Positions 7,708-46,122 of a DNA stretch of 64,000 nt are shown in pieces. Origin of the DNA: Gammaproteobacteria bacterium (GTDB lineage: Bacteria > Pseudomonadota > Gammaproteobacteria > Poriferisulfidales > GCA-002705445); contig JBJKYB010000002.1 of assembly GCA_045561235.1 (NCBI GenBank), positions 594,962-658,961 on the forward strand, read 5' to 3'. Each line of letters begins with the position of its first letter. Position 1 is the stretch's first letter. The notes under the pieces are model-generated. The model saw nothing but the letters and a program-made list of their open reading frames with translations. It was not told the origin of the DNA and searched no databases. A program made the position numbers and the translations under genes.

Positions 7708-7735
7708 AAAAAAGGCCTCTTACGAGGCCTTAAAT
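7708..7735. terminator. Bidirectional intrinsic terminator between the convergent ilvA and H1-like genes.
   Basis: Perfect hairpin GGCCTC-ttac-GAGGCC (7714-7729), preceded by A8 and followed by a T-rich stretch, so it can terminate transcripts from both strands. Confidence 0.6.
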
Positions 7736-7754: not shown

Positions 7755-8093
7755 CTATTTCTTCTTACGTTTCGCTTTTTTCTTTGCTACTTTACGTTTC
7801 ACTTTCTTTTTAGTAGCTTTTTTCTTAGCCTTCTTTTTAGCTACTTTCTTTTTCACTTTCTTTTTAGTAGCTTTTTTCTTAGCTTTCTTTTTAACTACTT
7901 TCTTTTTCGCTACTTTACGTTTCACTTTCTTTTTAGTAGCTTTTTTCTTAGCTTTCTTTTTAACTTTCTTTTTAGCAACTTTCTTTTTAGCTGCTTTACG
8001 TTTTGTAACTTTCTTCTTAGCTGCCTTACGTACTACTTTCTTTTTAGCAGCTTTTTTTCTTACTACTTTTTTCTTCTTACGTTTAATGGCCAT
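7755..8093 (-). CDS. Histone H1-like lysine/alanine-rich nucleoid protein (AlgP/Hc1/BpH1-like), about 112 aa. The likely start is the ATG at 8093, 6 nt after a GGAGG. The ORF-track start at 8111 is a GTG.
   Basis: The protein is almost entirely K/A/V/T/R, with a repeated KKKAKKKATKKKVK(R/K)KVAKK unit. The underlying DNA contains about 69-bp near-perfect tandem repeats. A strong SD (GGAGGattcaaATG) precedes the start. Confidence 0.75.
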   Translation of the reverse strand: MAIKRKKKKVVRKKAAKKKVVRKAAKKKVTKRKAAKKKVAKKKVKKKAKKKATKKKVKRKVAKKKVVKKKAKKKATKKKVKKKVAKKKAKKKATKKKVKRKVAKKKAKRKKK

Positions 8094-8159
8094 TTGAATC
8101 CTCCAAAACACTTAAAGTTTGTTATCAGATAAAAGTTTAATGATATTAAAGTTAAATAC

Positions 8160-8560
8160 AATCTTTTTTTTCATAAAAAAATATTGATATGTTTTTTTTT
8201 GTTTATTTACATGTTTTTTTAATTTTTTTATTAACAAAAATAAAAAAATAAGTTTTTTTGATGTTTTTTTGATGTTTTTTTGATGTTTTTTGTAATTTTA
8301 TTAACAAAATAAAAAAAAATAAGTTTTTTTTGATGTTTTTTTGCTTTTTTTTAGTTAATTCACATAAAATTTTTTTTATTAACACTTTTTTTCTTTTTTT
8401 TTACTTTTTTTTTACTTTTTTTTTACTTTTTTAATATTTTTTTAGCTTTTTTATGCTTTTTTTATGTTTTTTTAACTTTTTAATGTTTTTTTACTTTTTT
8501 TTCCGTTTTTTTTACATTTTTTTTATTTACATGACAATAAATTTTTTTTAAAACTCTTTT
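8160..8560. repeat. Array of about 30 homopolymeric T tracts (A tracts on the minus strand), each 5-10 nt, phased at 9-11 bp. Predicted to be strongly intrinsically curved DNA. It also holds three copies of TTATTAACA(A) at 8228, 8298 and 8376.
   Basis: Read directly: (GTTTTTTTGAT)x3-4 at 8253-8295 with 11-bp spacing. Tract starts at 8394, 8405, 8416, 8427, 8437, 8447, 8457, 8467, 8477, 8486, 8495, 8506 and 8517 give spacings of 11,11,11,10,10,10,10,10,9,9,11,11. No ORF is plausible here. The track ORF 8203..8385 is an artefact of the A-richness. Confidence 0.85.
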
Positions 8561-8617
8561 TGAGCATATTATTTTTTTTAGATTAAATGTTTAGAAAAAA
8601 ATTATATTCTTATTGAA

Positions 8618-8798
8618 GGTAAAACCGATGTACCGTTATTGTATATTTTCCTTGAACCGATAAGTTCAGGTGGGTTTAAGTTTTATACATTAGGCTACCT
8701 AAAATATTATAGGTTTGCTCACCTGTAATAATTTACTTAATCCCTATTTTAAAATTAGGAACAAAGATATAACTACTATATCGCGTACATCAGTTATT
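8618..8798 (-). ncRNA. ssrS: 6S RNA (SsrS) candidate, about 180 nt, directly downstream of zapA as in E. coli.
   Basis: On the minus strand the 5' end ...CTGATGTACGCG... can pair with the 3' end ...CGGTACATCGG (closing stem). The 3'-proximal element CACCTGAAC-ttatcg-GTTCAAGG matches the E. coli 6S element CACCTTGAACC-aag-GGTTCAAGG as I recall it from memory. It lies in a 290-bp noncoding gap after zapA. Confidence 0.6.
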
Positions 8799-8848
8799 TT
8801 TAAAATATATCAAATAAAAATAGAATAAACCAGTTTAAAATATCTTTT

Positions 8849-9151
8849 TTAGTTTTCTAGAACGGCGTTTATTTTTTGATGGAGTTCTAAAATTCTTTCT
8901 CTTATTGAGAAATTCAATGTATTAGTAATATCTTTATGGTTCAGAGAATCATTTGCAAAATTTAAAGCTGAAATTACAGCTATTCTGTCCAGGCCAATAG
9001 TCTTTCCTTCCGATTTTGTTTTCATCATCTTATCATTAAGTAACTCAGCAGATTTATATAGATCATCTTTTTCATTCTCTTGGCAAAAAATATCATAATT
9101 CTGATTAAGAATTTTAACTGTTACAGGAATTTTTTTATTTTGATCGTTCAT
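8849..9151 (-). CDS. zapA: Cell division protein ZapA (Z-ring-associated protein).
   Basis: 100 aa. The layout is ZapA-like, with an N-terminal beta region (VTVKILNQNYDI), a GLDRIAVISALN core and a coiled-coil tail. Its position upstream of ssrS and pepP matches the E. coli order ygfB-zapA-ssrS. Confidence 0.7.
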   Translation of the reverse strand: MNDQNKKIPVTVKILNQNYDIFCQENEKDDLYKSAELLNDKMMKTKSEGKTIGLDRIAVISALNFANDSLNHKDITNTLNFSIRERILELHQKINAVLEN

Positions 9152-9423
9152 TGTTGGGTATACTCCAAAGATCTTAATCTGTTTATTATACCTTCAACTT
9201 TATTTTGTACTTTTTGGTTTTTTTCTTTAATTTTAAATTTTTCAGCTACTTCCTGTTCTTGTCTTTCTTTTAATAGTTGATTTTCTTTTTTAAGATCTAA
9301 ATATTTATTAGACAATTCCTCTATTTTGACCTCGAGATCGTCTAACTCTTTATTTAGTGTAGATATTATGTGATCATTATTCATATATAATGTCATACTA
9401 TTATTGCCAGCATTATAGGTCAA
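9148..9423 (-). CDS. zapB: ZapB-like coiled-coil cell division protein (about 90 aa).
   Basis: Heptad-rich sequence (LNKELDDLEVKIEELSNKYLDLKKENQLLKERQEQ) similar to E. coli ZapB. Its stop overlaps the zapA start by 4 nt. Confidence 0.55.
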   Translation of the reverse strand: MTYNAGNNSMTLYMNNDHIISTLNKELDDLEVKIEELSNKYLDLKKENQLLKERQEQEVAEKFKIKEKNQKVQNKVEGIINRLRSLEYTQQ

Positions 9424-44943: not shown

Positions 44944-46107
44944 TTATTGTTTAGCAGCATCAACAGCCTTTTGTGCTGCATCTTTTAAAGTGTCGGCTAG
45001 AATTATGGGAAGCCCACTTTCTTTTACAATTTTTATACCTTCTTCTACATTTGTTCCTGATAATCGAACTATTAAAGGAATTTTTAAATCTACTTTAGGA
45101 ATAACTTGAACTAGACCCTCAGCAATCCAATCGCATCTGTTAATACCTGCATAAACATTTACAAGCATTGCTTTTACTTTTTTATCAGCTAGGACCAATT
45201 CAAATGCTTTACCAACTCTTTCTGGAGAAGCCCCACCTCCTATGTCCAAAAAGTTTGCAGGTTCGCCACCACAATATTTTATCATGTCCATTGAAGCCAT
45301 TGCCAAACCAGCACCGTTAATAATACAGCCAATGTCACCATCCAAACCAACATAACTGAGATCATGCTCTTTAGCCGCTACTTCTCTTGGATCTTTTTGA
45401 GAATTATCATTAAGAGAATCAATTTCAGGATGTTTAAATAAAGCGTTGTCATCAAAGCTAACTTTTGCATCAAGTGCAATAAGATTATTATCTTTTGTCA
45501 AAACTAATGGATTTATTTCTAGCATATTCATATCTAAATTAGTCATAGCTTTATAGCAACCCATTAATAATTTAACCGCTTTTCCAAGTGCTTCTTTAGG
45601 AAGATTAAGTGCAAAACTTAATTCTCTTGCTTGAAAACCTGTAAGTCCTACTACGGGGTCAATTTCAATTTTTTTAATAGAATCAGGTTTTTCTACTGCA
45701 AGTTCTTCTATTGACATACCACCTTCGGCTGAAGCGACAATAACAATTCTTTGTGATGCTCGGTCCATTACAAATGCTAAATAAATCTCCCTGTCGATAT
45801 CACAACCGGATTCAATATAGAGTTTTTCAATTAACTTCCCTTCGTCACCAGTTTGAATAGTTTTTAAATAAGTGCCAAAAAGTTTCTCAGATGCAGCTTT
45901 AACTTCCTCATCAGATTTACAGAGAACTATACCTCCAGCTTTACCTCTTGCACCAGAATGAACTTGTGCTTTTACAACACATAAATCTGTTCTTAATTTT
46001 TTAAATGCATCGACAGCTTCTGTGGAGTTGTGTGCTAGCTCACCTGCTAAAATTTGAACTCCATAATTTGATAATATTTCTTTCGCTTGATATTCGTGTA
46101 TATCCAA
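44944..46107 (-). CDS. mtkA: Malate--CoA ligase beta subunit, SucC-like (ATP-grasp).
   Basis: 387 aa. N-terminal MDIHEYQAKE(I)L, ATP-grasp and ligase-CoA domains. Context as for mtkB. Confidence 0.75.
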   Translation of the reverse strand: MDIHEYQAKEILSNYGVQILAGELAHNSTEAVDAFKKLRTDLCVVKAQVHSGARGKAGGIVLCKSDEEVKAASEKLFGTYLKTIQTGDEGKLIEKLYIESGCDIDREIYLAFVMDRASQRIVIVASAEGGMSIEELAVEKPDSIKKIEIDPVVGLTGFQARELSFALNLPKEALGKAVKLLMGCYKAMTNLDMNMLEINPLVLTKDNNLIALDAKVSFDDNALFKHPEIDSLNDNSQKDPREVAAKEHDLSYVGLDGDIGCIINGAGLAMASMDMIKYCGGEPANFLDIGGGASPERVGKAFELVLADKKVKAMLVNVYAGINRCDWIAEGLVQVIPKVDLKIPLIVRLSGTNVEEGIKIVKESGLPIILADTLKDAAQKAVDAAKQ

Positions 46108-46122
46108 AACAGTTCCCCTATA

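Follow-up and report, generated by a model that had tools for sequence, protein, structure and literature searches.

Helically phased A-tracts occur upstream of bacterial promoters, where their effect depends on their phase relative to the -35 hexamer (reviewed in PMC9825172), and the T-tract rheostat of Helicobacter pylori sabA acts through the axial alignment of UP-like elements (PMC4081817). Here we analyze a 64,000-bp stretch of a gammaproteobacterial contig (JBJKYB010000002.1, positions 594,962-658,961; hereafter the window), in which a long array of phased A-tracts lies between the 6S RNA gene (ssrS) and a gene for a lysine-rich, "H1-like" protein. Curved upstream DNA is familiar from the phage SP82 Alu156 promoter in Bacillus subtilis, from Clostridium perfringens plc, and from synthetic A-tract inserts upstream of lac; the natural curved-DNA activators that we know of have about three to six tracts within about 100 bp, whereas the array in the window has about 30 over about 440 bp, reaching to about -475. 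Phased A-tracts ahead of promoters are an established kind of element, of which this array is an extreme and evolutionarily informative variant. Its helical-repeat period, its register with a conserved predicted promoter, and its retention in a genome otherwise poor in spacers point to a cis-acting DNA-shape element, a long curved upstream extension of the H1-like promoter; we give this model-based reading a probability of about one half.

The array contains 34 homopolymeric runs of A or T that are 5 nt or longer (5-9 nt; 29 T-runs and 5 A-runs on the + strand), in line with the first-pass annotation, which had described about 30 T runs at a spacing of about 10-11 bp and a density beyond that of ordinary AT-rich DNA: the two regular blocks have mean spacings of 11 and about 10.1 bp, and the 400-bp frames starting at 8151 and 8201 contain 31 runs each (the window has a median of 6 and a 99th percentile of 17). 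The spacer as a whole gives a spectral peak at 10.1 bp, and none of 300 shuffles in which tracts and spacers were kept and their order randomized reaches this peak; the runs thus recur at a helical period, as in phased A-tract elements. In DNA rich in A-tracts, the helical repeat is close to this tract repeat of 10.1-10.2 bp. The stretch is 88% A+T and includes the GC minimum of the window (0.206, at 8001-9000). The sense strand of the H1-like gene is locally 61% A, which by our estimate would alone yield roughly half of the runs, so that the periodic order is the non-random part. Block A has 3.6 copies in Tandem Repeats Finder (TRF), with 100% identity and spacings of 11, 11, and 11 bp; in block B, the start-to-start spacings range from 8 to 11 bp (mean about 10.1 bp). 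These two blocks (see Table 1 for coordinates) hold 18 of the approximately 30 runs. The regularity that had been ascribed to the array therefore holds for them, while the remaining runs are less even, and the array ends at about 8601 rather than at 8560. As the first-pass annotation had also stated, the array has no coding potential, since it contains only spurious open reading frames (ORFs) of at most 60 aa. No comparable second array was found in the 64-kb window or in the 13-kb related loci described below. Most of the array lies between the two copies of a perfect 12-nt direct repeat (+ strand TTTATTTACATG, at 8202-8213 and 8522-8533, 320 bp apart).

We predicted the shape of this DNA with wedge-model trajectories, using three parameter sets (Bolshoy/Trifonov, AA-wedge, and De Santis-like). 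All three sets place the strongest bend of the whole window at 8294-8309, where the predicted bend is 163-180 degrees across 105 bp (window median 30-38, 99th percentile 84-107), far above the flanking DNA; the extreme curvature that had been proposed from the letters alone is thus recovered by the models. The ratio of end-to-end distance to contour length is 0.18-0.27 for the array (8165-8565), compared with 0.30-0.44 for an ideal (A6N4)x40 control and about 0.8-0.9 for coding DNA, so the array is in these models as compact as the synthetic A6N4 controls or more so. Block B (145 bp) has a predicted turn of about 200-230 degrees, and over about 400 bp the predicted curvature adds up to about 1.5 turns. 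Although the coding region of the H1-like gene shares the richness in A and the repeats, the wedge models leave it uncurved, because its repeats recur at multiples of 3 nt. The units of the array (AAAAAAGTT/A) look like the Lys-Lys-Val codons of the H1-like gene.

We searched for related loci in two ways: a pepP-based scan with one genome per species yielded 12 loci from marine gammaproteobacterial metagenome-assembled genomes (MAGs) and single-amplified genomes, and a scan of metagenomes with the conserved pattern of the 5′ untranslated region (UTR) and Shine-Dalgarno (SD) sequence yielded 36 further contigs (L013-L048). Ten close relatives have 26-29% GC and pepP identities of 66-84%. In nine loci the gene order is pepP / zapB-zapA-ssrS / array / H1-like gene / terminator / ilvA, and in each of these the densest cluster of A/T runs is exactly the spacer between ssrS and the H1-like gene. 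The array is present in all 20 loci that keep the H1-like gene at this place (nine genome loci, ten complete metagenome loci, and the window), and the two distant relatives without the H1-like gene (42% and 35% GC) are also without the array. Homologous loci without phased tracts, the case that the first-pass annotation had named as speaking against its proposal, therefore do not occur among the relatives that keep the gene. Ten metagenome contigs cover the spacer in full; 6S lies upstream in them, and its end is 381-517 bp away from the SD pattern. Wherever a lineage has retained the H1-like gene, the array measures 310-450 bp. All ten genome spacers have a spectral peak at 9.9-10.2 bp. All 20 complete arrays are compact in the models, with ratios of 0.13-0.57 (De Santis-like) and 0.29-0.67 (Bolshoy), whereas shuffles of their own tracts give about 0.75-0.85. 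The A-tracts lie nearly always on the gene-sense strand across lineages, with 17-29 A-runs versus two to seven T-runs of at least 5 nt on that strand in every lineage.

Upstream of the promoter block, in contrast to period and bend, the sequence is unconserved, and the unit types differ by lineage (GTTAAAAAA, GATAAAAAAA, CTTAAAAA, and others). Across lineages, no non-homopolymer 7- or 8-mer is shared by the arrays other than AAAGTTA-type unit junctions. The 72-bp higher-order repeat is specific to the window's own lineage, since the TTATTAACA motif is absent from other lineages. Three copies of this motif do occur in the window, at 8228, 8298, and 8376, as had been reported, but they stem from a local 72-bp duplication. 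As a clade-wide regulator site, TTATTAACA was rejected: it is present only in the window and, once, in the closest relative (L009), and over the whole window it is only weakly enriched, with 7 matches where 3.3 are expected, a count that 6 of 100 shuffles reach. One locus, L004 (pepP 67% identical; L004 1-1311), has only about 190 bp of array after 6S and is missing the H1-like gene; beyond the array there is unrelated DNA with small ORFs and then, by eye, an accA-like gene, up to the contig end. The array may have been rearranged here or interrupted by an insertion, or the contig may be a chimera joined at low-complexity DNA. By our count, 24 of the 36 metagenome contigs stop within the spacer, in many cases 250-370 bp upstream of the SD sequence, which indicates that the array breaks short-read assemblies. 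The array is thereby a systematic MAG gap next to ssrS in this abundant marine group.

The suggestion that this is a hypervariable, slippage-prone region is borne out by near-identical strains, which differ by indels of 1, 10, 32, and 70-80 bp. For example, L022, L023, and L028 have whole-unit indels of 10 and 70-80 bp between near-identical spacers, and L007 and L031 differ by 32 bp; the less similar pair L024 and L045 (about 87% identity in aligned columns) differs by 51 bp. Where two spacers share at least 93% identity, the most frequent event is a 1-bp indel (18 pair-occurrences versus three unit-sized indels). The A-tract of the UP-like element (8164-8171, nominal -38 to -46 in this comparison) varies from A7 to A10, with a recurrent 1-bp gap at about -45 between strains that are otherwise nearly identical. 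Repeat-length polymorphism of the kind expected of a simple-sequence-repeat rheostat promoter is thus found in these metagenome assemblies.

Although sequence and length turn over, the arrays keep a common register with the promoter. We measured tract centers from the -35 and carried out phase tests on 11 lineage representatives: the centers recur across lineages at about -42, -72, -82, -102, and -112, and so on through -204, -214, -224, -234, -244, and -254. In Rayleigh tests the phase is non-random from -60 to -160 (p = 0.0002-0.0006 at periods of 10.0-10.3 bp), from -160 to -260 (p = 0.006-0.015), and from -260 to -360 (p = 0.003-0.010), and the averaged tract-occupancy profile has a sharp 10.2-bp spectral peak out to about -330. 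A second set of 9-13 other arrays has the same mean phase (V-test p ≤0.002), so that the phase is fixed relative to the -35 in both sets, the promoter itself being predicted. Inheritance tract by tract can be ruled out as the source of the shared register, because beyond -160, shifts of 0, +/-10, and +/-20 bp give equally high ungapped identity across lineages; the lineages share a phase, not orthologous tracts. The 1-bp indels should scramble a long-range register, and they are the commonest, yet the phase persists, which is the main argument for selection on shape. The free change of sequence and length, with predicted bend and register kept, suggests that DNA shape is what selection preserves.

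Beyond what the first-pass annotation contained, we find at the proximal end of the array a conserved UP-like element and a predicted core promoter, with which the array is in helical register across lineages. Across 34 distinct orthologous sequences, the approximately 100 bp that precede the ATG hardly vary; they contain, in this order, a T-tract, an A-tract, AGA, TTGTAT, 16 bp, TAnACT, the 5′ UTR, and GGAGG. The UP-like pair consists of an A8 on the sense strand at 8164-8171 (nominal -38 to -45) and a T7 on the same strand at 8175-8181 (-49 to -55); against the Escherichia coli UP consensus, we count 11 of 14 matches for the full element and seven of eight for the proximal subsite. Only these proximal 18 bp of the array agree with the UP-element consensus. 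The array as a whole was rejected as an UP element, since it extends to about -475, past the reach of the C-terminal domain of the RNA polymerase alpha subunit (alpha-CTD; about -60, or about -90 with activators). The -35 and -10 hexamers are invariant in the 34 sequences save for one -10 position, the third, which is A, C, or G; this is the least constrained -10 position, so the variation is as expected if the putative -10 is real. A consensus promoter scan did not call this core promoter, because its -35 matches at only three of six positions. The near-invariant predicted 5′ UTR may contain a translational operator. In L005, L006, L007, L036, and others, the 5′ UTR has an 11-nt insertion that duplicates an ACTTTAA(A/C)C motif.

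The gene downstream encodes a protein with a conserved N-terminus (MAIKRKKKKVV..AAKKKVVRKAAKKKVTKRK) and, besides its lysines (59%), arginine, alanine, valine, and threonine repeats. Its complete orthologues, of which we found 41, range from 80 to 138 aa, have about 52% lysine, and contain internal repeats of variable copy number. Within one lineage, the size ranges from 94 to 138 aa (L022, 94; L023, 118; L019, 128; L028, 138). The 112-aa protein of the window has no match in Pfam or NCBIfam, and a search of 5.8 billion proteins returned only three low-complexity matches, none of them usable (the gene context of the hit P0003 was unrelated). The label "H1-like", and DNA binding with it, is therefore an assumption from composition (about 60% lysine plus arginine).

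The surroundings are otherwise compact. Coding sequence makes up 92% of the window, the median gap between genes is 5 bp, and the 524-bp spacer from ssrS to the ATG is the largest non-coding stretch; the second-largest gap (45769-46122, 354 bp between two minus-strand ORFs) is without an Rfam hit. The 6S RNA candidate beside the array was confirmed by Rfam as a full-length gene, and its 3′ end is 17 bp from the array's last tract, so that the array does form the 5′ region of the H1-like gene and adjoins the 3′ side of 6S, as the earlier reading had it. The ssrS gene is at the same position in 11 related loci. There is no other Rfam match in the window, so the array matches no non-coding RNA family in Rfam, and the window contains no tRNA genes. 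No intrinsic terminator was predicted after ssrS (8618-8094, minus strand), and no conserved T-run follows 6S in the relatives. A 91-aa coiled-coil ORF (9148-9423, minus strand) upstream of zapA overlaps its start by 4 bp and has a sub-threshold match to ZapB (20 bits, cut-off 31.5). Far from the array, a 9-bp tandem repeat (ATGGGCGGC, 4.3 copies, 96% identity) is located at 1659-1697 inside ORF 27-1703; it is GC-rich in an AT-rich genome.

Table 1. Features of the ssrS/H1-like locus (positions in the window)
Feature	Position	Strand	Description
Bidirectional intrinsic terminator	7712-7731		Common to ilvA (+) and the H1-like gene (-), which are convergent
Lysine-rich "H1-like" gene	7755-8093	-	112 aa, 59% K; internal tandem repeats
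Predicted 5′ UTR	8094-8127	-	About 34 nt; Shine-Dalgarno GGAGG at 8100-8104; highly conserved
Predicted sigma-70-type core promoter	8134-8161	-	-35 TTGTAT (8156-8161), 16-bp spacer, -10 TAAACT (8134-8139)
UP-element-like pair	8164-8181	-	Directly upstream of -35; conserved in 34 distinct orthologous sequences
Whole phased A-tract array	8164-8601	-	About 30 tracts, nominal -38 to about -475 relative to the predicted -35
72-bp higher-order repeat	8189-8352	-	2.3 copies (TRF); has two of the three TTATTAACA copies and A-tract/T-tract junction modules
Block A	8253-8291	-	Four exact 11-bp units; sense strand ATCAAAAAAAC, + strand GTTTTTTTGAT
Block B	8386-8524	-	14 tracts in a row, 5-9 nt long; regularity and predicted curvature highest
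6S RNA gene (ssrS)	8618-8799	-	Rfam RF00013, 72.4 bits (gathering score 46.4)
zapA	8849-9151		Upstream of the 6S RNA gene, with a weak zapB-like ORF; pepP divergent

If the array is a shape element, a far-upstream, copy-number-variable curved-DNA module would set H1-like gene transcription. In this model, the tracts would turn their narrow minor grooves to about the face of the helix that the UP A-tract at -42 occupies, and with the grooves on a shared face, the upstream DNA would curl toward the RNA polymerase side. Such a curl could raise or tune initiation through polymerase wrapping, through serial contacts of the alpha-CTD type, or by placing the promoter at the tip of a supercoiled loop; gain and loss of units, together with 1-bp tract slippage, would then act as a slow rheostat on promoter output. 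A nucleoid protein, possibly the H1-like product itself, may be the true reader of the shape. Several points weigh against this explanation. To our knowledge, effects of upstream A-tracts and alpha-CTD contacts are documented only to about -100, and most of the array is further upstream, at -100 to -450. The promoter, a prediction from conservation only, has a weak -35 (three of six). The phase of the array is offset from the UP A-tract at -42 by 1.3-2.4 bp at a period of 10.2 bp (about a quarter turn), so that the two are on the same face only approximately. The Rayleigh p-values overstate the case, because slippage by whole units preserves phase and the lineages are phylogenetically non-independent, and some of the 1-bp homopolymer differences are possibly assembly errors. 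The strong strand bias of the A/T runs goes beyond what curvature requires. As for the wedge parameters, the three sets agree, and textbook A-tract phasing gives the same outcome.

The constant company of array and H1-like gene, and the variable copy number of repeats in both, would also fit a nucleoid-protein platform, a reading that we consider possible if on balance unlikely: the lysine-rich product itself, or a protein of the H-NS or Fis type, would cover the array, or wrap it, along one face of the helix and would spread to the promoter or occlude it. The outcome would be negative autoregulation of an abundant DNA-binding protein, or else a site that nucleates or anchors the folding of the nucleoid, with array length as the set-point. 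A register of 10.2 bp on one face that runs into the UP/-35 region fits a filament reaching the promoter. H-NS-type silencers favor AT-rich curved DNA, often upstream of promoters (PMC7601328, whose reference list includes work on hns autoregulation as refs 56 and 57), and A-tract periodicity is stronger in genomes with DNA-bridging nucleoid proteins (PMC3940949). However, the protein is without a recognizable domain or family, its binding to DNA is assumed from its basic residues, and basic low-complexity proteins may bind other partners, such as polyphosphate in the case of AlgP (PMC9239181) or RNA. A platform is moreover compatible with a shape element, so the two do not exclude each other. 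A bolder combination, which we regard as doubtful, is that array and protein would form a self-specifying nucleoprotein particle that gauges the free pool of the main chromatin protein: the protein would wrap or coat the curved A-tract superhelix of about 1.5 turns on its own promoter, like a positioned histone-like particle. If so, co-varying copy numbers of array units and protein repeats would set a strain's chromatin dosage, and a shape-encoded regulator would stand in place of transcription factors in a streamlined genome.

The strand bias and the missing terminator bring in the RNA. Since ssrS has no predicted terminator, the array would be transcribed, and it could be the A-rich spacer of an ssrS-H1 co-transcript and act as a leader without structure, a site of RNA processing, or an RNA to which proteins bind (or, in another form of this proposal, an insulator between two strongly transcribed units). 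The universal bias of A to the sense strand, needless for curvature, hints at a directional process, and in L010, a more distant relative, a gene follows ssrS directly, as in E. coli (ssrS-ygfA). We hold a role of this kind to be improbable, since it predicts neither a helical-repeat period nor a register locked to the downstream -35, the conserved UP-like/-35/-10 block argues for an independent promoter, and the spacer has no Rfam match and no conserved primary sequence or motif. The array as the terminator region of ssrS was itself rejected, as a GC-rich hairpin with a T-run is neither predicted between ssrS and the H1-like gene nor conserved in relatives. A neutral minisatellite, in which slippage expanded an A-rich unit of about 10 bp in a very AT-rich genome, a position in a spacer made this tolerable, and period and phase came from the founding unit and were kept by slippage of whole units, would account for the indels in multiples of units (10, 32, and 70-80 bp), for the lineage-specific unit families that turnover predicts, and for the break of about two thirds of the metagenome contigs (24 of 36) inside the array, which is typical of simple repeats. 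Yet the array is kept at 310-450 bp in a genome otherwise stripped of non-coding DNA (median gap 5 bp) and without a counterpart elsewhere in the 64 kb or the 13-kb related loci, and a mixture of 9-, 10-, and 11-bp units with 1-bp indels should randomize a phase that is kept to about -330 in two independent sets; neutrality thus seems to us a poor bet. Much the least probable is a supercoil-responsive element, either a region of stress-induced duplex destabilization or a pinning site for plectoneme tips, through which the H1-like promoter would respond to global superhelicity or which would absorb supercoils that ssrS transcription generates. Here the low GC content (0.206 at 8001-9000) and the position directly downstream of a presumably highly transcribed RNA gene are suggestive, and A-tracts and curvature have been proposed to pin plectonemes, with polymerase reported at apical loops (PMC9825172, discussion). 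Against it, plectoneme pinning is really a sub-mechanism of the DNA-shape element, and duplex destabilization requires AT-richness, not helical phasing. Homopolymeric A-tracts are also stiffer than alternating AT sequences and melt less readily. We also rejected a replication origin: the DnaA box TTATNCACA has no match in the whole window, and there is no GC-skew switch at 8 kb.

Returning to the reading as a curved promoter extension, the locus bears on an old unsettled question, whether far-upstream curvature is functional or only proximal alpha-CTD contacts matter. It amounts to a natural experiment, in which a nearly spacerless genome keeps an array whose sequence turns over while period, bend, and register stay; the natural alleles, which differ by whole units and by single bases, are a ready test series. 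In a literature search of partial coverage, we found no earlier description of the array or the protein in marine Gammaproteobacteria, nor did we find, within the same coverage, an array of this scale (about 30 tracts, about 440 bp), phase-keeping turnover, or a link to a lysine-rich gene next to ssrS.

Compared with described systems, the array shares with the bent helix of kinetoplast minicircles and their H1-like KAP proteins (PMC7810991) the combination of A-tracts phased at about 10 bp and lysine-rich H1-like proteins; the minicircle belongs to a eukaryotic organelle and is without promoter context, so the likeness is of form only. As in E. coli hns, the gene for a putative abundant DNA-binding protein lies behind curved AT-rich DNA, but the protein here is unrelated to H-NS (low-complexity, lysine-rich, and without a family), and the curved region is several times longer. 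The UP element of rrnB P1, an alpha-CTD site at -38 to -59, resembles the proximal 18 bp (8164-8181) with its T-tract followed by an A-tract, whereas the remaining approximately 400 bp of the array lie outside the known alpha-CTD contact region. The slippage-prone A/T tracts beside the -35, with lengths that differ between close strains, recall H. pylori sabA, and the bacteria studied here, too, probably have few classical regulators; H. pylori has a single tract, while here a whole array undergoes whole-unit and multi-unit indels, and the population variation comes from metagenome assemblies, not from tracked clones. Unlike the curved-DNA promoter activators, the array is a variable-number tandem repeat whose units turn over while the phase is kept. 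Like them, it follows the sequence rule from which curvature is predicted, and it places A-tracts of helical period upstream of a predicted sigma-70-type promoter, in a fixed register with the -35.

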